From: a phage
Length of the DNA stretch: 64,000 nt
Sequence record: MZ956761.1
Strand: one strand, 5' to 3'
Program-made: the position numbers and the translations under genes
In this document: positions 6,393 through 49,791 of the stretch, piece by piece
Layout of the letters: each line of letters opens with the position of its first letter
Numbering within the stretch: the stretch's first letter is position 1
The notes under the pieces: model-generated
What the model saw: only the letters and a program-made list of their open reading frames with translations
Told to the model about the DNA's origin: nothing
Databases searched by the model: none

Positions 6393-7674
6393 ATTCATCA
6401 ATGATAATTTTTGGTAGTTTAACACCTAATAAAACAGACAAATCTGAACGACCCGCCATTTTATCCATGTCTCCACCGTCAATTACTCTTGCTTCTTTTT
6501 CATCTTTTGCTACAGTGTAAGGATTTGCAGATAAAGCATATCTAACTAATAAACCGATAGATGGCTGCAAACTTTCTGGATCGACTACAACTTTAAATGC
6601 ACCTACATGTTCAGGGTCATCTAAGTCAAGACCTTCTGTATACGGAGCATAGAAAATTGACCCAACAATTTCTTTTTCACCGATATTTTCTACTACGCCA
6701 ACGATTACATAATCTAATGGGCTGTTGGTATCGCAATAAAGTGGTAAACCATTAGCTAAGAACCCGTAGGCATTTTGTGAAAGATATTTGTCATCTTCTG
6801 GTTTATGTTTTAACCAACCTGATGCAGCAAGAATCGCAGCAGCACGAGCTGAAGCAACACAGAACGTTGCAGTATAAGTTGATTCTTTTTGGATATGCGA
6901 AACCATTTCACATACCATTCGGTATAATGAACGACCAGCTTCAGGCGCAGATGCATAACTCAAATCAATGAATCCAGTATCAGTAATTCCTGTAACTTTA
7001 TAGCGTTTTGACACTGTAATCAAAGACTGCAGAATATCTTTATTGATTTCATCTGCCATTTCGGTTGCAAGCAAATCTTCCAAGAAATTAGGAGCATCGA
7101 ATCCGTTTGCTTCTAAATCTTGTGCTAATTCAACTGTGATGCCAGTTTTAAGTTTACGAGATTTAACTGCGGTTTGCCATTTATTAATCTGGAATCTAGC
7201 ATCCGCAATTTCACTATCAGAGCTTTCAAATTTGCTTGTTACTGCAGCATCAGAAAATAGACGAACCTTTAAAAGAACAATTGCAATCTGAAGAGCTAAT
7301 TCTAAATCACTTTCTTCAATATCAGCAAATGGTGTATCTTCTAATACTTTATAAACGATATTATTATATTTGAATAAATCGCCTTTATTGAGAGTTAATT
7401 TAGACTCTTCTGTTAATTCTGTGATTTGTTCTCGGTCTACGTATCCAGCTTCGCCGGCGTAAGTAGCACCAGTTTTAAATGTAAATTCGTTATCTGGGTT
7501 AAGGTATTTGATACCATAAAAAGCAGCAACAGGTTGATTAGTTCTTTGCGTTGCTACAATGTCAGAATATATTAATTTAGTGGTAGCGCGAGTCAAAGCA
7601 ACGAGATTTGGGCGACCGATTGAGTTGCTATTCGTTGTGGTTGATTCGCGCAGAAGTTCGTTGATTTTAGCCAT
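6391..7674 (-). CDS. 24: gp24 capsid vertex protein
   Basis: 427 aa; next to gene 23. Confidence 0.9.
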   Translation of the reverse strand: MAKINELLRESTTTNSNSIGRPNLVALTRATTKLIYSDIVATQRTNQPVAAFYGIKYLNPDNEFTFKTGATYAGEAGYVDREQITELTEESKLTLNKGDLFKYNNIVYKVLEDTPFADIEESDLELALQIAIVLLKVRLFSDAAVTSKFESSDSEIADARFQINKWQTAVKSRKLKTGITVELAQDLEANGFDAPNFLEDLLATEMADEINKDILQSLITVSKRYKVTGITDTGFIDLSYASAPEAGRSLYRMVCEMVSHIQKESTYTATFCVASARAAAILAASGWLKHKPEDDKYLSQNAYGFLANGLPLYCDTNSPLDYVIVGVVENIGEKEIVGSIFYAPYTEGLDLDDPEHVGAFKVVVDPESLQPSIGLLVRYALSANPYTVAKDEKEARVIDGGDMDKMAGRSDLSVLLGVKLPKIIIDE

Positions 7675-7701
7675 TGCGCTTTCCTTTTGGTTTATATGAT
7701 T

Positions 7702-7709
7702 TATTTATA
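7702..7709 (-). promoter_or_regulatory. T4-type late promoter for gene 24
   Basis: TATTTATA on plus strand about 28 bp upstream of gene 24 start. Confidence 0.5.
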
Positions 7710-7725
7710 CCATAAAAACAACTAA

Positions 7726-7743
7726 AGGGACCCGAAGGTCCCT
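7726..7743 (-). terminator. hairpin after gene 23
   Basis: AGGGACC-CGAA-GGTCCCT inverted repeat just downstream of the gene 23 stop. Confidence 0.5.
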
Positions 7744-7757
7744 TAAATCGTCAAAGA

Positions 7758-9323
7758 TTAGATACCTTTAACATATACACGGCGGAAGTAAGCGTTTTTA
7801 CCAAGGCTATTCAGAATAGAAGGCATACCGCTCTGGATGCGAGAAGCCGGAGCCTGAGCAGCGGATTCTGCAAATGGGTTGATACCGATACCGTAACGAG
7901 TTTTGAATCCCATTACTGGTTGGAAGTTCTTCGGATCGGAACCACGCAGCGGAGTCAGAGCTACATATGGAGCGTAGTAAATACCAGCATCCATTTCGTT
8001 CGGACCTTTATAACCTACAGTGAAATAATCCTGTTTAGCATACTGGTCGATATATACACGGTATTTACCACCCAGAACACCAGCAAATACTGACTTGGTA
8101 GTATCAGTGTTAAAGCCGGTAGCCAGACCCTGTGCAGCATAAGAAATGCCAGTATCAACTGAAGCCAGAACGTTAACTACGTTACGGGAAGCGATAATGA
8201 AGTTACCTTCACCACGACCGGTCTGACGAGCAATTTCAACTGCTTCTTTGTCAATCTGGAACAACAGAGCTTTAAAGGATTCACCCGCCCAGCGAGCACC
8301 ACGAATATCAATCGGATCCTGGAAGTCAAATACACCAGCTTTAGAACCCGGAGTCAGGGTCATACCAGATTTACCAACCTGAGCTGAGTAGTTAATCCAA
8401 TCAACAACTTCACGGTTGATTTCCAGCATGATTTCGGTAGCCAGAATACCAGACAGTTCAGCATCAGCATCCATACCGTGAACAGCGCGGAGGTCTTGTG
8501 CTAATTCGATAGAGTAAGCAGCTTTCAGCTGACGAGATTTAGCTTCGATAACTTGTTTATCAATACGGAAGCCCATTTCATTCCATGGGTTATCGGTAGA
8601 ACCGTTGAAACCTTCCTGAAGTTCAGCGATAGAAGTAGCCATACCTTCAGCGATTTCTACCAGTACACCAGCTTCCATTTGTTTCTTAATTTCAGCATCT
8701 AATTTAGCTGCGTCATCTGCAGTAGAACTAATTGTTACTTGAGCAGAAGCTTGCAGATACACAGTACCAGTGTCCTGGAAGAAGTGAGTATAGATATCAC
8801 CTACTGTAGTTTGCGTGCTAGCAGCCAGAGCTGGGAATTTCTTAGCAGCACCCTGACCAGAGAACATTGCATCTGGACCATACATTGGGTGGAATGCTTC
8901 TTTAGCACCGGCAGCGATTGGGTCTTTACCATATACTGCGCGCAGTGCGAATACCTGGCCAGTCGGGCTGTTCATCGGCTGAACACCGCAAATATCGAAA
9001 GCAATCAGGTTAGGAATAGCACGACGTACCATACCCATAACAGCTGGGCCAATCTGAGTTACTGCGCCAGAAGTCTGACCAGCAGCGATGTTAGTAGCGT
9101 TGTAACCGTGGTCACCACCGATTTCAGCTTCTGTTAAGAAAGAACCAAACGCCTGAGCGATTTTTTCGTCTTTGTATTCTGGAGCTGTCTGGAAATCTTT
9201 TTCCTGGTTTTCAAAGATTTTAGCGATAATCGCTTGTTTGCTATTAGCAATTTCCGGTAAACCTTCACCTTCCAGTAATGGCTTCCATTTGTTCAAAAGT
9301 TCAGCTTTAGTTTTGATAGTCAT
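7758..9323 (-). CDS. 23: gp23 major capsid protein
   Basis: 521 aa; MTIKTKAELLNKWKPLLEGEG N-terminus recognised as T4 gp23. Confidence 0.95.
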   Translation of the reverse strand: MTIKTKAELLNKWKPLLEGEGLPEIANSKQAIIAKIFENQEKDFQTAPEYKDEKIAQAFGSFLTEAEIGGDHGYNATNIAAGQTSGAVTQIGPAVMGMVRRAIPNLIAFDICGVQPMNSPTGQVFALRAVYGKDPIAAGAKEAFHPMYGPDAMFSGQGAAKKFPALAASTQTTVGDIYTHFFQDTGTVYLQASAQVTISSTADDAAKLDAEIKKQMEAGVLVEIAEGMATSIAELQEGFNGSTDNPWNEMGFRIDKQVIEAKSRQLKAAYSIELAQDLRAVHGMDADAELSGILATEIMLEINREVVDWINYSAQVGKSGMTLTPGSKAGVFDFQDPIDIRGARWAGESFKALLFQIDKEAVEIARQTGRGEGNFIIASRNVVNVLASVDTGISYAAQGLATGFNTDTTKSVFAGVLGGKYRVYIDQYAKQDYFTVGYKGPNEMDAGIYYAPYVALTPLRGSDPKNFQPVMGFKTRYGIGINPFAESAAQAPASRIQSGMPSILNSLGKNAYFRRVYVKGI

Positions 9324-9341
9324 TTGTGTTAACCTTTAAAA

Positions 9342-10151
9342 TTAGAAACGAGATGCGACTTTCGCATATACACTTACAATATCTTCTGCACCAGGTGCAG
9401 CTTTATCTTCTACAGCTTCAGTGACGAAATTCAGTCCGGCTGCTTCAGTATCAGGAGTATTTATACCCTCAGTAATAGTGCTTTCATCTTTATTAGACTT
9501 CTTCACCATTTCTACGATGGCACTCAATTTACTTGAGAATGCATCTGAATAATCCATACCTTCGACCAGAGCAGAGACTTTTTCTTTTTGAGACTCAGTC
9601 AGATCTTTAGTACTTTCGCTCAATGCCACTTCACGCTGCACATAATTGATATATGCGTCGCGCATATTGAGTTCTTCGAACAGACGAGCTGATTCTTCTT
9701 TATGTTCTTGCAGCTCTTCTTCCATTTCAGCTACAACATCAACTGATTCTTCTGGAACAACAACGTTGTGTTCAACAAAGAGCTCTTTTAATCCACCAAG
9801 CATGGATTCAAACAGTTCGGCTTTGATGCCTTTATCAACTGCTAATTTATTTTCAGCGAGCCATTCTTTCGCAAGATGGTCGATGAATTTAGAAGCTTGC
9901 TCAGCGATTTTCTTCTCAGCTTTTTCTTCGGCTTCTTCTTTATTTTTTTCTACTTCTTCTTCTGCTTTTTCAGCAATTTTAGCGATATGAGATTCAGCTA
10001 ATTTAACGGCGTGCTGCTTGACGGTAGCTTCGAATACAGTGCCGAAAGTTTCTTTTGCTTCCGGAGAAATATTAACTGATTCGAAAATACTATCAAGAGC
10101 AACGGAAGCATCAATTTTTTGCGCTTCAGCAATCAGTTGTTCTTTAAGCAT
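9342..10151 (-). CDS. 22: gp22 prohead core scaffold protein
   Basis: 269 aa, acidic and helical; between genes 21 and 23. Confidence 0.85.
   Translation of the reverse strand: MLKEQLIAEAQKIDASVALDSIFESVNISPEAKETFGTVFEATVKQHAVKLAESHIAKIAEKAEEEVEKNKEEAEEKAEKKIAEQASKFIDHLAKEWLAENKLAVDKGIKAELFESMLGGLKELFVEHNVVVPEESVDVVAEMEEELQEHKEESARLFEELNMRDAYINYVQREVALSESTKDLTESQKEKVSALVEGMDYSDAFSSKLSAIVEMVKKSNKDESTITEGINTPDTEAAGLNFVTEAVEDKAAPGAEDIVSVYAKVASRF
9458..9465 (-). promoter_or_regulatory. T4-type late promoter inside 3' end of gene 22 (P23)
   Basis: TATTTATA on plus strand about 135 bp upstream of gene 23 start. Confidence 0.45.
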
Positions 10152-43785: not shown

Positions 43786-43816
43786 CTTAGCCCCGACCGA
43801 AAGGTTGGGGCTTTTT
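43786..43816 (+). repeat. 31-bp direct repeat with terminator hairpin (left copy)
   Basis: CTTAGCCCCGACCGAAAGGTTGGGGCTTTTT, identical to the copy at 44341. Confidence 0.7.
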
Positions 43817-43862: not shown

Positions 43863-44336
43863 ATGAAATCATATGCTCAATTTTTAAATGAAGCGGTGTT
43901 AAATGAAGCATCTAGCACCGAAATTCAAGCTGTTGCAAAAGCTGCCATTGCCGCGGGTAAATATTCCTATAAGGATGCTTCCGATGAATCACGATTCCAA
44001 TTTGCTCGTGATATGAAAGCCGAAGGATTTACAGGGAATGCAGTTAGTATGGCTTGGAAAAGTTTAGTTGCTACTGGAGCTGCTTTTGCAAAGGCTTCAG
44101 GTAAACCTGCTCCTAAGGCTGACCCTAAAGCAGCACAAGAAAAAAATATTGCTAAAGGAATTATCTCTAGGTATGAAGCAATTCTTAAAGAACTTTTGAT
44201 AATTAAGACCGAAGGCCAGAAACTTGCGCGAGCTCATAGTTTCAAAGATAATCCACATGCTCATGACCTAGAGTATGTTGAAGACATCCAAAAAATTATT
44301 AAAGACCGCATTTGGTCTGCTAAACAAATCAAATAA
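43863..44336 (+). CDS. capsid-targeting-tag protein (internal-protein-like), 157 aa
   Basis: N-terminus MKSYAQFLNE resembles the IP tag MKTYQEFIAE; late promoter upstream; flanked by identical 31-bp repeats. Confidence 0.5.
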   Translation: MKSYAQFLNEAVLNEASSTEIQAVAKAAIAAGKYSYKDASDESRFQFARDMKAEGFTGNAVSMAWKSLVATGAAFAKASGKPAPKADPKAAQEKNIAKGIISRYEAILKELLIIKTEGQKLARAHSFKDNPHAHDLEYVEDIQKIIKDRIWSAKQIK

Positions 44337-44340
44337 CATT

Positions 44341-44371
44341 CTTAGCCCCGACCGAAAGGTTGGGGCTTTTT
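44341..44371 (+). repeat. 31-bp direct repeat with terminator hairpin (right copy)
   Basis: Identical 31-mer immediately after the stop of the 43863 ORF. Confidence 0.7.
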
Positions 44372-44576: not shown

Positions 44577-44840
44577 ATGGATAATTACGGCGAACTGTTC
44601 AACTTCTTTATGAAATGCGTTTCAGAAGATTTCGGTCGTACAGTGAATGATATTAAAGTTATCGGTCCTGATCATCCGATGTTTGAAACTTACGCAGTAA
44701 TGGGTAATGAAGATGGTCAGTGGTATACTGTAAAGGTTGTGATTAATATGTTCACGGCAGAAGGTTATGTTAAACTGTCTTCTAAAGTTTACCATGATAA
44801 CGATGAAATCGCAGAAGAATATTTCAATAATATGAAATAA
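44577..44840 (+). CDS. hypothetical early protein
   Basis: 87 aa from ATG with GGAG SD (track ORF begins at TTG 44565). Confidence 0.5.
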   Translation: MDNYGELFNFFMKCVSEDFGRTVNDIKVIGPDHPMFETYAVMGNEDGQWYTVKVVINMFTAEGYVKLSSKVYHDNDEIAEEYFNNMK

Positions 44841-45453: not shown

Positions 45454-45483
45454 GTTTACAATCTATTAGAAACGTGATATTAT
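45454..45483 (+). promoter_or_regulatory. T4-type early promoter
   Basis: GTTTAC-N18-TGaTATTAT. Confidence 0.45.
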
Positions 45484-45510: not shown

Positions 45511-46104
45511 ATGAACACACTGAAGAAAATTGTTGAGTTTATTCGCACTAAACTTGGTTCTGCTATGGCTAAAAATTTATCTGTTGAAGAACAGTATACT
45601 GCTGCGGCAGCAAAACTGCTTGATAAAATTAAAGATCTAAAAACTGCTTCTGTTAAATCTATTAATGAAGAAAAGCGTATTCGTGAACTTATTGTCGAAA
45701 AGAATAAGCAGGCCGAATCAAAAGAGCGTGAAATTCGCAAGCTTCTTTCCGAAGGTCAAGATGTAACAATGCATGCTAAACTCGGCTTGCTATATCGTCG
45801 AACAGCTGAGCAGTTGACTACTAAAGCTGATGGTTATGCTGAAATGCGAATTGAAATCGCTAAGAAAGTAGTTGAATTGGATGATGCACGCCAAGAACTT
45901 GCGGTTAAATTGGAATATATCCGTGAAACTCGTGCAGCAAATGCCCTTGGAATTAGTACTGCTGATGATGTAGTTGAAATTGCAGCACTGACTAAGGTTG
46001 ATATTGAAGATACTCTTGCTCGAGTTGAAACCTTTAACGGTAATATTTCTGGGGTTGAAACTACTTCTGCTGATGTTCAGGAATACATTAATTCTCTGAA
46101 ATAA
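45511..46104 (+). CDS. coiled-coil protein, possibly PspA/IM30-like
   Basis: 197 aa, heptad-rich helical sequence; family assignment is impression only. Confidence 0.45.
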
Positions 46105-46109
46105 TGATA

Positions 46110-46125
46110 AGGGGCTTCGGCCCCT
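46110..46125 (+). terminator. hairpin terminator
   Basis: AGGGGC-TTCG-GCCCCT after the stop at 46104. Confidence 0.5.
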
Positions 46126-46145: not shown

Positions 46146-46754
46146 ATGAAAATGCAAAGTGATTTCAATTCAATGTTTGAAGAGTTCCAAAGACAGGTTG
46201 ATGTTCCAGACCAATTACTAAATGCTCTTAAACGTATGGCAGAAGGACGTAATTATTATTGGGGTTCTTCATATGAAACTGATGAAAGTCTTTCTGGAAG
46301 ATTTTCCAGAGGTAAAAAGTCTTTAATACGTCCTGGAATACTTATTAACAGTATTGAATCAATTCATTCATTGACATGTGATTTTGATGTTGAATTTACT
46401 GATTTCATTTCTCCTGAATGGTCAGTTTGTTATTTAAACGACGATTTTGATTATCTCGGTGTTTATAGTTTAAGTGACGCATGGTTTAAACGTAACTTAC
46501 AAAAGTCAAATTTATTTTATATTGATACTACGGTAAAATTTCAGGGCAAGAAATATTTTTTTACTCTTATAGTTGATTCTGAAACGAAGTATGAAAATAA
46601 ACGTATTCTTAGTAAAAAGAATATCTTAACTATTGTTGATGATCTTTTTGATAAATTCGTAGAAAATCCCAATTTTGAAAGCGATTTATTACTAGAAAAA
46701 TTTGTGAAGGAATGTAGAGAATATGTCAAAGCCATCAATGTATCTTCCAAGTAA
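46146..46754 (+). CDS. hypothetical protein, first of four coupled genes
   Basis: 202 aa; C-terminal FVKECREYVK overlaps next gene start. Confidence 0.5.
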   Translation: MKMQSDFNSMFEEFQRQVDVPDQLLNALKRMAEGRNYYWGSSYETDESLSGRFSRGKKSLIRPGILINSIESIHSLTCDFDVEFTDFISPEWSVCYLNDDFDYLGVYSLSDAWFKRNLQKSNLFYIDTTVKFQGKKYFFTLIVDSETKYENKRILSKKNILTIVDDLFDKFVENPNFESDLLLEKFVKECREYVKAINVSSK

Positions 46755-47115
46755 ACCGTTGAAGTATGAATTAAAGCGCCAGCTAATTTCTACTGATGTA
46801 TTAATAGGTCCTGTAATAGCTGTATCATTTGTAATTCTACTGGGGGTTGGAATAGTTATAGATGTTATGACTGATATTGAATCTAATATAATATTTGCGT
46901 CAACATTAATTCTTCCAATGATAGTTCCATTTTTATTAGTACCTGTAAATTGGGTAGGATACTGGTATCAAGGAAGGCATTATCGTAAACGCGTACGTGA
47001 TTGGAAAGCACAGTGTAAAAAGATTAAAAAGGAACATCAGCTTAAACTTGCTGCGTATGAATTTGATGAAATTATGAAATTTGTTAAGGAATCACGATGC
47101 AAAAGCCAAAACTAA
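46723..47115 (+). CDS. small membrane protein
   Basis: 130 aa with hydrophobic segments; C-terminal FVKESRCK. Confidence 0.5.
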   Translation: MSKPSMYLPSKPLKYELKRQLISTDVLIGPVIAVSFVILLGVGIVIDVMTDIESNIIFASTLILPMIVPFLLVPVNWVGYWYQGRHYRKRVRDWKAQCKKIKKEHQLKLAAYEFDEIMKFVKESRCKSQN

Positions 47116-47459
47116 ATAAAGTCAAATATTCGCTTCCTGAGTCATTTTTAATTTTTGCTGTGGCGTTGGCTGCAGCTCTTGCGGGTAGTCTTTTTGGATT
47201 GTTAATTGACTGTCTTATTTTAAACATTGACGGCACAGTAAATATAATAGAAGTTTGGAGTGAACTTCACTATACTAAAATTATTTCATTATTTTCATTC
47301 TTTGGTACCATGTTATATTTTCATTATGATAATTTTAAAATAAATTGGCAAAGAAAAAAAGATTACAAAATACAATTAAAAGAATATAATAGCTACATGT
47401 CTTATATTGAAAAAGAATCAATGGAAGAGTTTGTGAGTGATTGTAGGAAAATTAAATGA
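47097..47459 (+). CDS. small membrane protein
   Basis: 120 aa, two hydrophobic segments; C-terminal FVSDCRKIK. Confidence 0.5.
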   Translation: MQKPKLNKVKYSLPESFLIFAVALAAALAGSLFGLLIDCLILNIDGTVNIIEVWSELHYTKIISLFSFFGTMLYFHYDNFKINWQRKKDYKIQLKEYNSYMSYIEKESMEEFVSDCRKIK

Positions 47460-47944
47460 TTTTAAAAACTCGCTGGTATGATTTAGATGATGGGGATGAT
47501 GGCATTTCAGTTGATAGAGTTGACTGGAATGGTTGTTCCGAAGATATGAAAAATTTGTTGATTAGGGAGTTTAGAATGGGATATCAAGCAGCTAAGCCAT
47601 TTACTGTAACAGATGATAAGTTCGTATGTATTCAAAACGGTCGCGCTAAGTTAACGAATGCTGATTGGTTCACAGATAAGAAGGTTCTTCTGTGGTATAT
47701 CATTAGTCTTCCTATATCATCGTTCGTATTTTACTTTTTTATAAAAAATCCAATGGACAGAATAGGAGATTGGGTTCTTTTAACTATACTTGTTAATATT
47801 TTTACAGCAGCAGTATTATCAGGAATATGGTACATGTTCATTGAAATGCCATGGCGGTTACGCAGACAGCAAAAGATTTTTGATGAAAAGAAATATACTC
47901 AAAATTTAAATAACTTTATCACTGAATGCAGGAAATTAAAATGA
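47456..47944 (+). CDS. small membrane protein
   Basis: 162 aa, hydrophobic segments; C-terminal FITECRKLK. Confidence 0.5.
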   Translation: MILKTRWYDLDDGDDGISVDRVDWNGCSEDMKNLLIREFRMGYQAAKPFTVTDDKFVCIQNGRAKLTNADWFTDKKVLLWYIISLPISSFVFYFFIKNPMDRIGDWVLLTILVNIFTAAVLSGIWYMFIEMPWRLRRQQKIFDEKKYTQNLNNFITECRKLK

Positions 47945-48381
47945 AAACACTATCAGCTGGTATTATCTTTATGACAGAAGATAAAGATTTATTTATGGGT
48001 CGGGTTACTGGTTCTCGTAAGCCTGGAATGATGGCACACCGCTGGGATATTCCAAAGGGCCGTGTAGAAAATTCTGATTTAAGCGCATTAGATGCAGCAC
48101 GAAGAGAATGTTTAGAAGAGACTGGTTTTAGCAATTATAATCCAGACCTTCTAGAAGACCTAGGTGTATTTAAATATTCTAGTAATAAAGACCTACAGTT
48201 ATTTTATTATACGATTCCAGTAGAGCATGAGATGTTTAGAAATTGCCATTGCGAGTCTTATTTTGAAAATAAAGACGGTGTTATGATTCCAGAGATGGAC
48301 GCTTTTGCTCTTATTCCTCGTACTCAGTGGCAATATGTGATGGGTCCTTCACTTTACCGAATAATGAACAACCTCTTTTAA
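47926..48381 (+). CDS. nudE: NudE Nudix hydrolase
   Basis: 151 aa; Nudix box GRVENSDLSALDAARRECLEETGF; start could also be the Met at 47941. Confidence 0.8.
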   Translation: MQEIKMKTLSAGIIFMTEDKDLFMGRVTGSRKPGMMAHRWDIPKGRVENSDLSALDAARRECLEETGFSNYNPDLLEDLGVFKYSSNKDLQLFYYTIPVEHEMFRNCHCESYFENKDGVMIPEMDAFALIPRTQWQYVMGPSLYRIMNNLF

Positions 48382-48912
<531 letters not shown>

Positions 48913-48983: not shown

Positions 48984-49301
48984 ATGAAAACGTATAAAGA
49001 ATTTATTGCAGAATCTGCTGCAGGACAACGTGTAGAAGGCGGTTATATCTGGATTGAACAAGTTGAGCCGCCGAGTCGCACTTCTACGGGTAAATGGAAA
49101 ATCACTGTTGATGGTCCTGGTGGTAAACGTAGGACTCTTAAAGAAATTAACGGGTACTATGAAGAAGCTCTTTCTGACGCGGGTACTTATATGATGCAAA
49201 TCATGATTAAAAACCCAGAAAATCGTTTTGCGGCTAGAGTTTTCCGCCGTATTGGAAATAAGCTTTATGATGCATATTCTAAAAACTTTCCTAAAGAATA
49301 A
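48984..49301 (+). CDS. internal head protein (IPII/IPIII-type)
   Basis: 105 aa; N-terminal MKTYKEFIAE capsid-targeting tag. Confidence 0.7.
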   Translation: MKTYKEFIAESAAGQRVEGGYIWIEQVEPPSRTSTGKWKITVDGPGGKRRTLKEINGYYEEALSDAGTYMMQIMIKNPENRFAARVFRRIGNKLYDAYSKNFPKE

Positions 49302-49317
49302 AAATTAAAGGATACAC

Positions 49318-49791
49318 ATGAAAACATATCAAGAATTTATTACTGAAGCAGCTATTAATTCTCAAATTATTGCTGAATCTTTTACTGATCTTTTGAAATT
49401 TAAAAAAGGTCAAAAAATCACTGCTGTATTGGATGATGGTACAGAAGTTGAGATGGATGTACAGGGATATAATTATGCAGTAGATGGAAAACTGTATAAT
49501 AAATCTCATGCTAAATTTGATTCATTTGACGACTTTGTTAATACAGTTGAAGATGAAAAAACTCGTAGATCCATTGCAACTGGTGATGCTAAGGTTCTTA
49601 TGGCACATGGTCATGAACGCATTCGCGCTAAACAGAATAAAATGGGTGAAGATAATTTTGCATTAGTTGGTTATCAATCTGGTAAACAAACTTATGGCTA
49701 TCAGCGTACTGCTACCATGTATAACAAAAATGGTAAAATCGCTTTCGTGAATAGCAAAGGCTCTATTCAGTACGTCAAATCATTCAAATAA
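49318..49791 (+). CDS. internal head protein (IPII/IPIII-type)
   Basis: 157 aa; N-terminal MKTYQEFITE capsid-targeting tag. Confidence 0.7.
   Translation: MKTYQEFITEAAINSQIIAESFTDLLKFKKGQKITAVLDDGTEVEMDVQGYNYAVDGKLYNKSHAKFDSFDDFVNTVEDEKTRRSIATGDAKVLMAHGHERIRAKQNKMGEDNFALVGYQSGKQTYGYQRTATMYNKNGKIAFVNSKGSIQYVKSFK

Follow-up and report, generated by a model that had tools for sequence, protein, structure and literature searches.

Why should four consecutive genes of a phage overlap one another from stop to start and end in the same short peptide? The question is raised by a 1.8-kb region (46146-47944) of phage sequence record MZ956761.1, of which one stretch of 64,000 nucleotides (nt), here called the window, was analysed. 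The region has 100% nt identity to Escherichia phage ADUt and 94% to genes e.5-e.2 of phage T4; the window is from a Tequatrovirus, and its gene order (e.6 - e.5 - e.4 - e.3 - e.2 - nudE - e) is the same as in T4 record AF158101. A first-pass annotation, made from the letters of the sequence, had described four open reading frames (ORFs) overlapping start-to-stop, and this is borne out by overlaps of 32 nt (e.5/e.4), 19 nt (e.4/e.3) and 4 nt (e.3/e.2), with a further 4 nt (e.2/nudE) into nudE at 47941. Our favoured answer, which we place slightly above even odds (a probability of roughly 0.55), is that this is a tight gene run in which a peptide-conserved tail on mostly unrelated protein bodies would act as a docking or assembly helix, joining the products in one complex. 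The genes are:

46146..46754, + strand: e.5, a soluble protein of 202 amino acids (aa) (PHROG 2607; precomputed Pfam PF26876).
46723..47115, + strand: e.4, 130 aa, hydrophobic helices at about aa 24-47 and 55-79 (PHROG 2604).
47097..47459, + strand: e.3, 120 aa, hydrophobic helices at about aa 16-42 and 62-77, the second weaker (PHROG 2330).
47456..47944, + strand: e.2, 162 aa (PHROG 2203; precomputed Pfam PF26896).
47941..48381, + strand: nudE, encoding a Nudix hydrolase, the last gene of the run with a predicted translational link.

All four proteins match their PHROG families over the full length (E = 2e-109 for e.5, 1e-69 for e.4, 2e-60 for e.3 and 2e-78 for e.2), and none of these families carries an assigned function. 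Scans of Pfam-A and NCBIfam returned no family for e.5-e.2. The identifiers PF26876 and PF26896 are newer than the Pfam-A copy scanned, neighbouring identifiers bear names of the form 'Phage_T4_Y..', and the two seem to have been named for T4 ORFs, with no function given. Given the identity to T4 e.5-e.2, the function-free PHROG families and the lack of a Pfam-A or NCBIfam family, these are known T4 ORFs to which no role has been assigned. A weak match of e.4 to Bfi1 (18.6 bits against a cut-off of 100) was taken as hydrophobic-helix noise and rejected.

The shared ending lies at or close to the C-terminus of each protein:

46701..46718, + strand: e.5 tail motif FVKECR (tail FVKECREYVK..).
47080..47097, + strand: e.4 tail motif FVKESR (tail FVKESRCKSQN), with the Cys displaced to +6.
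47430..47459, + strand: e.3 tail FVSDCRKIK and stop, the left repeat copy in the loss of e.2.
47915..47944, + strand: e.2 tail FITECRKLK and stop, the right repeat copy in the loss of e.2.

Searches of all six frames of the window with F[VIL]x[ED][CS]R returned exactly four matches, every one a C-terminus of e.5-e.2, and no match near a gene end was found in T4 at 1-50 kb and 118.9-168.9 kb, segments that together with the window represent about 164 of the 169 kb of a T4-type genome. We scored peptide similarity as the best 7-aa BLOSUM62 window within the last 20 aa of each gene, against a background of 4650 gene-end pairs. Four of the six tail pairs score 27-31, above the 99.9th percentile of the background (25), and the e.4/e.3 and e.4/e.2 pairs score just 17 (about the top 6%), so that e.4 is the outlier of the set. 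The proposal that all four proteins end in a related motif is upheld by the four six-frame matches and by these four high-scoring pairs. Furthermore, a consensus tail, [LIF]-E-x-[FW]-[IV]-K-E-C-R-K followed by the stop, recurs in at least eight groups of T4-like phages. Its hydrophobic positions (-3, 0, +1 and +4) fall on one helix face, and in an AlphaFold model of e.5 the tail forms the final helix (residues 180-196), the model being of low confidence (predicted local distance difference test score, pLDDT, of 61). The idea that the tail is a membrane-targeting amphipathic helix was rejected by inspection, given its net charge of about -1 to +2 and its several acidic residues.

Three of the four carriers are predicted membrane proteins. 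In a hydropathy scan at a threshold of 1.6, e.5 had no hydrophobic segment and e.4, e.3 and e.2 had two apiece, the second e.3 segment being weaker and under the threshold; with this reservation, the clear hydrophobic helices attributed to three of the four proteins were recovered. In e.2 the helices (aa 77-96 and 103-129) follow a soluble N-terminal domain of about 75 aa. By the positive-inside rule, the C-termini of e.4, e.3 and e.2 would lie on the cytoplasmic side of the membrane, and e.4 is predicted to adopt an N-in/C-in topology.

The DNA encoding the tails also carries the signals for the next gene. Each tail holds a Shine-Dalgarno (SD) sequence 5-10 nt ahead of the following ATG:

46707-46712, + strand: SD of e.4, K-E codons AAG GAA, 10 nt before the ATG at 46723.
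47086-47091, + strand: SD of e.3, K-E codons AAG GAA, 5 nt before the ATG at 47097.
47445-47450, + strand: SD of e.2, AGGAAA within R-K codons, ahead of an ATGA stop/start overlap at 47456-47459.
47930-47935, + strand: SD of nudE, AGGAAA within R-K codons, ahead of an ATGA stop/start overlap at 47941-47944.

The junctions thus carry the SD and start of the next gene as had been described, though the codons that supply the SD differ (K-E or R-K), and translational coupling is predicted for the whole e.5-e.2-nudE run. The further claim of a conserved nucleotide junction was sustained in part. The DNA pattern TTYRTNNNNGANTGYMG has 3 matches against 0.13 expected, the tail DNA of e.4 is the same as that of e.5 at 15 of 16 nt, and in the best 18-nt window the e.5/e.4 and e.3/e.2 pairs agree at 15 positions (top 0.3%) and the e.5/e.3 pair at 14 (top 2%), whereas the remaining three pairs lie at background (12/18). 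When a degenerate form of the junction pattern was searched for in viral contigs, four of the five matches were in T4-like phages; the fifth, in the 222-kb contig L027, lies away from a gene end and is probably due to chance.

Is the repeated unit, then, a nucleotide element or a peptide? One possibility is that the junction is kept as a (re-)initiation region or some other RNA signal, with the peptide as a by-product. Consistent with this, an SD lies within every tail of the window, the distance from motif start to next ATG is most often 20 nt (17 of 63 tails with a detected following start), and in locus L009, where e.3 is internally deleted, the pseudogene retains its start and its tail-coding end ahead of the next gene. 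Codon usage across 79 distinct tail-coding sequences argues otherwise, with all six Arg codons in use (AGA 22, CGT 18, CGC 11, AGG 8, CGA 5, CGG 2), as are both codons for Cys (TGT 35, TGC 23) and both for Phe (TTT 56, TTC 14). Lys at +2 is encoded by AAG in 37% of tails versus 30% in gene bodies, and there is therefore no strong SD bias at this position. Moreover, the tail is kept where no start adjoins it: in Pectobacterium phage PM2 (L021 12181-12447) the next gene has a separate SD after the stop, in Klebsiella phage KPV15 (L024 8845-9153) a promoter-containing intergenic spacer follows, and in Aeromonas phage 31 a 67-nt gap. Tail variants are specific to each orthologue and stable across genera (e.5 ..ECREY[VA]K, e.4 ..KE[SIV]R, e.2 FITECR), for which reason concerted evolution, that is, homogenisation of the junctions within genomes, was also rejected. 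The mixed Arg, Cys and Phe codons, the tails without a near start and the orthologue-specific variants therefore place the constraint on the protein. Taken with the differing SD codons and the three nucleotide pairings at background, they leave the purely nucleotide-level explanation largely refuted and, in our judgement, very improbable. The repeated unit appears to be primarily a peptide, on which a ribosome-binding role, real as a sequence feature, would be superimposed; the suggestion of conserved initiation regions is hence plausible as regards the SD in every tail, but secondary, as conservation lies at the amino-acid level.

To see what the tail is attached to elsewhere, we compared loci anchored on e.6 (45511..46104, + strand, a helical-hairpin protein of 197 aa ending EYINSLK-stop). 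The comparison covered 21 viral loci and four more distant ones, leaving out L025, which ends within e.6, and extended to RB69 and one Gaprivervirus record; the named loci are phages PM2, KPV15 and Aeromonas phage 31 together with Klebsiella phage Marfa and Serratia phage X20. In all 25 inspected loci extending past e.6, this gene lies directly upstream of an e.5-type gene, at e.6 identities as low as 48%. The e.5-type proteins have transitively homologous bodies and make up a single orthologous family that spans T4 and Aeromonas phage 31, and their tails are present in all loci (e.g., FIMECREY, FIAECREY, FIKHCRE, FVESCRK, FIKYCRK, FVKMCRT, FVDYCRR and FVKECRK). What follows e.5 is variable: from none to as many as five small proteins that have two hydrophobic helices and bear the tail, and, up to about 6 kb downstream, further tail-bearing genes that include e.2 orthologues (Mosigvirus, Gaprivervirus, X20) and soluble proteins of 95-102 aa. 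Each enterobacterial genome examined has at least three tail-bearing genes and Aeromonas phage 31 only one. Gene number from e.6 to nudE thus varies between genera in the comparison across T4-like genomes that the first-pass annotation had proposed. A search of a representative library with the e.5 profile returned six proteins, all near relatives or fragments, with no wider spread found.

A second tandem family stands right after e.3 in other genera. Its members, soluble and 65-105 aa long, all have ..G-x-W-[VIYQ]-S-S-S-x-x-C in front of the stop, which is usually followed immediately by TAAGGAA and the next ATG, so that here, too, a conserved C-terminus lies at a gene junction (L003 3731-4526; L004 4191-5213; L010-L023 at about 7500-9400; L033 8832-9391; L035 5976-6495). 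This family was not found in the 64-kb window.

Does the repetition reflect common descent of the genes or a portable tail? On the former account, one small membrane-protein gene was duplicated in tandem, the tail is its slowest-evolving remnant with no docking role, and recombination is incidental. For e.3 and e.4 there is much in its favour. They have the two-helix-plus-tail architecture in common, and their start-codon regions (ATGTCAAAGCCA vs ATGCAAAAGCCA) and the tails that precede them are alike at the DNA level. Intermediates in PM2 connect the two by hhalign (96% probability for e3-c14 and 94% for e4-c16 with tails, 60% and 89% without, from shallow profiles), and PM2 also has two adjacent BLAST-linked copies, which is consistent with duplication. 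The PM2 intermediates and the matching start codons and preceding tails make it probable that e.3 and e.4 go back to an old tandem duplication.

The same account fares less well for the set as a whole. Once tails are removed, hhalign probabilities, again from shallow profiles, are 0.4% for e.2-e.3, 0.5% for e.2-e.4 and 10% for e.3-e.4, and BLAST sorts the tail-bearing ORFs into about 20 unlinked clusters. No relation to e.3/e.4 was found for the bodies of e.5, which is soluble and belongs to its own orthologous family, of e.2 or of the small soluble proteins of 95-102 aa, all of which bear the tail. In addition, retention of the tail across divergence as deep as that of the e.6 loci requires purifying selection on the tail. 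We therefore regard plain tandem paralogy as a possible but rather doubtful explanation of the whole run.

The exchangeability of the downstream genes raises the question of whether recombination acts at the junctions. In phages Ozark and L005, e.2 is precisely absent and e.3 directly joins nudE; the sequence follows the end of e.3 up to GAT-TG and from there matches the e.2/nudE junction base for base. At the x position, e.3 has S in one of the two phages and I in the other; each allele is also present in e.2-bearing phages, and two alleles among e.2-less phages hint at more than one loss of e.2. Searches of phage records by tblastn at 80% identity or more found e.4 in 496, e.3 in 490 and e.2 in 448, and e.2 is missing from about 9% of Tequatrovirus records. 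Relatives of Gaprivervirus that lack e.4 (L011-L014 and L016) have a hybrid in which e.5, ...AAAGAGGTTCAAAATG, is joined to the e.3 start, a chimera with e.5 on the left and the e.3 start on the right that was checked base by base in L012 and L014. These chimeras show that a crossover between two junctions deletes one whole gene while leaving the upstream tail, the frames and the stop/start overlap intact. The e.3/e.2 boundary is exactly where Mosigvirus, Gaprivervirus and X20 carry 1.5-3.9 kb of unrelated genes, and the same recombination may also insert cassettes. The exact loss chimeras for e.2 (Ozark, L005) and e.4 (L012, L014) support cassette shuffling at the junctions, which the first-pass annotation had raised as one of two options; the contrary outcome, in which the junctions would be no more alike than those of other gene pairs and the locus would not vary, was checked for and is not what we found.

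Further rearrangements were observed in the same genes. The reference T4 e.2 is a frameshifted allele of 102 aa, in which the A6 run is shortened to A5 and a +1 some 80 nt further on compensates (window position about 47745-47750, where e.2 is intact; L002 4090-4200); a 22-member cluster, Yersinia phage fPS-2 among its members, has this truncated form as its representative (P0063). In L036 (MZ375356, 'Mutant Escherichia phage T4 clone T4_583L', 151.8 kb), the e.8 region is fused to the last third of e.2, with e.7, e.6, e.5, e.4, e.3 and most of e.2 gone, consistent with laboratory dispensability of the region. Separately, Escherichia phage vB_EcoM-UFV05 (P0065) encodes an in-frame e.4::e.2 chimera of 106 aa with two helices and the tail, in which e.3 is gone; the fusion point lies in the first hydrophobic helix, such that e.4 residues 1-31 are followed by e.2 from its first helix to the tail.

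What might such a tail do? It is best read as a common cytoplasmic docking or assembly helix. Its hydrophobic face would pack against a common partner or against other tails, joining soluble e.5 and the exchangeable membrane subunits in one complex that may also contain e.6. Overlapping stops and starts would help the subunits to be made together, and the junction repeats would permit their loss or gain in frame. Several points weigh against this docking scheme. At least e.3 and e.4 may be old tandem paralogues, and in light of the PM2 links and the matching e.3/e.4 starts some of the repetition is due to common descent; the deletions seen may be nothing more than rare, neutral accidents in a region that the phage can do without; the e.5 model that places the tail in a helix is of low confidence (pLDDT 61); the tail is neither uniformly cationic nor strongly amphipathic; and its Cys is replaced by S, I or V in e.4 variants.

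A bolder version, which we consider speculative and improbable as a whole, would make the tail a portable address tag for exchangeable subunits of a complex on the cytoplasmic face, arranged around e.6 and e.5 as a self-shuffling, host-adapting module. The always-adjacent core would then consist of e.6, as a BAR/ESCRT-III-like helical hairpin, and e.5. The e.6 model has a short N-terminal helix and a long, confident helical hairpin, and the e.5 model gave only weak NuoC-type matches. The same stretch of about 20 nt would serve as tag code, as the ribosome-binding site of the next gene and as a crossover site, and the operon could therefore swap, lose or duplicate subunits in frame with assembly and expression unbroken.

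A common tag on unrelated proteins would also be expected of a degron, and a C-terminal turnover signal by which a host or phage protease shortens the lifetime of these early proteins fits a tail that is at or close to the extreme C-terminus, inferred to be cytoplasmic and often basic at its end. The final residues themselves make this an unlikely reading: e.5 has 5-15 variable residues after the motif, and the last residue is widely variable (K, N, S, G or A). To our knowledge, the tail pattern is unlike the known C-terminal degron classes.

A role for the three membrane proteins in superinfection exclusion or in the timing of lysis had also been suggested. The evidence for this is positional, in that small inner-membrane proteins are encoded in an early/middle transcription unit adjoining the lysozyme gene. 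Against it, none of 12 T4 proteins compared by phmmer --max (Imm, Sp, RIII, holin T, Ac, gp52.1 and others) scored above 5.5 bits, the e.2 of reference T4 carries a frameshift and the gene is missing from about 9% of relatives, and no protein family points that way. Nothing on e.2-e.5 was found in the searchable full-text literature (gene names; T4 toxicity or early-gene screens), nor in the Kutter 2018 review or the Aravind-lab NAD/ADPr paper. The suggestion is thus unsupported, and we give it little credence.

Several known arrangements resemble the docking-tail run in part. T4 gp43, gp33 and gp55 are unrelated proteins with clamp-binding C-terminal docking tails. Like these, e.5-e.2 are otherwise unrelated proteins of one phage with a short conserved C-terminal peptide and, by analogy, possibly a similar mode of action; the e.5-e.2 tail sequence is distinct, however, and three of its carriers are membrane proteins. 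In translationally coupled operons, too, an SD lies inside the upstream ORF and genes overlap stop-to-start (here by 4 to 32 nt), but there is usually no peptide motif at each junction, and the e.5-e.2 run is the only one with such a motif among 263 ORF-derived genes in the approximately 164 kb covered. In the Psp system (PspA with PspB/PspC), as in the run headed by e.6, small membrane proteins whose helical tails are cytoplasmic come after a protein of about 200 aa that consists of a short N-terminal helix and a helical hairpin. As a PspA homologue, e.6 is unsupported by sequence and ambiguous by fold: it had no PF04012 match at E <=1, no PspA/Vipp1 chain was among its PDB sequence matches, and hhalign gave a probability of 0.5% against PspA (PspA sequence checked against PDB entry 4WHE).

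The closest parallel for the recombination is the promoter-early stem-loop (PeSL) cassette, through which T4-type phages shuffle gene modules; a PeSL lies between genes and combines a sigma-70 promoter with a stem-loop, so that each gene forms its own transcription unit (PMC2839356, PMC4122927). Both systems have short repeats that flank small dispensable early genes in hyperplastic regions, with the SD and start of the downstream gene at the 3' end (here AAGGAA/AGGAAA 5-10 nt before the ATG), and in both a crossover between copies excises or exchanges whole genes, as in the chimeras of Ozark, L005, L012 and L014. Unlike PeSLs, the e.5-e.2 repeat lies within coding sequence and is translated as a conserved tail, the genes overlap stop-to-start, and there is no promoter or hairpin at the junctions. 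The genes themselves were already known, and we did not find a description of a translated, protein-selected junction common to unrelated proteins.

Expression of the run apparently involves its neighbours, e.5-e.2 being apparently co-transcribed with e.6 and nudE. The flanking features are:

45455..45483, + strand: sigma-70-like promoter candidate upstream of e.6, TTTACA-17-TATTAT with TG, based on consensus match; likely the start of the e.6-to-nudE transcription unit.
46110..46125, + strand: hairpin AGGGGCTTCGGCCCCT, rich in GC, located in the e.6/e.5 spacer and lacking a + strand T tract; it is more probably an attenuator or RNA stem-loop than a strong terminator.
3' of nudE: late-promoter-like TATAAATA.
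48418-48912: lysozyme gene e, after nudE and the late-promoter-like site.

Promoter-like sites in the region number 27, which is not above the expectation from shuffled sequence (21.3 +/- 5.0), and none of the 27 is located at an e.5-e.2 junction. On the + strand at 45.5-48.4 kb, the only stem-loop candidates are the one at 46110-46125 and another at 47170-47184 (6 pairs, inside e.3), and neither falls at any of the four junctions. Further upstream, an identical 24-nt GC-rich hairpin, AGCCCCGACCGAAAGGTTGGGGCT, with a T run occurs twice (43789-43812 and 44344-44367, 555 nt apart) and flanks one ORF (43863-44336); the pair looks like a terminator or PeSL-type repeat.

Two resemblances to the tail occur in nearby genes. 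The products of e.8 (44577-44840) and e.6 end in EEYFNNMK-stop and QEYINSLK-stop, endings shaped like the e.5-e.2 tail (aromatic, aliphatic, x, x, C/L/M, basic), and the e.6 form, [ED]-Y-[IL]-x-S-L-K, is conserved from T4 through Aeromonas phage 31. With a loose pattern chosen post hoc, six of the nine matches among the 263 ORF-derived genes are e.8, e.6, e.5, e.4, e.3 and e.2. The internal-protein genes at 48984-49301 and 49318-49791 start with MKTYKEFIAES and MKTYQEFITEAA, in which EFIAE/EFITE is similar to tails such as NFITECRK and RFIAECREY. Only four residues are in common, and the resemblance is probably due to chance; the I-x-E in these starts is the type of site cut by the T4 prohead protease.

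The genes e.2-e.5 are part of the large set of T4 early genes without known function. The shared tail ties these separately annotated genes into one probable complex, and as a selectable C-terminal tag it offers a concrete experimental handle on them. Recombination inside coding sequence preserves the frame, the peptide tail and the ribosome-binding site together, and represents a second route, besides intergenic PeSL cassettes, by which T4-type phages lose and may gain accessory genes.

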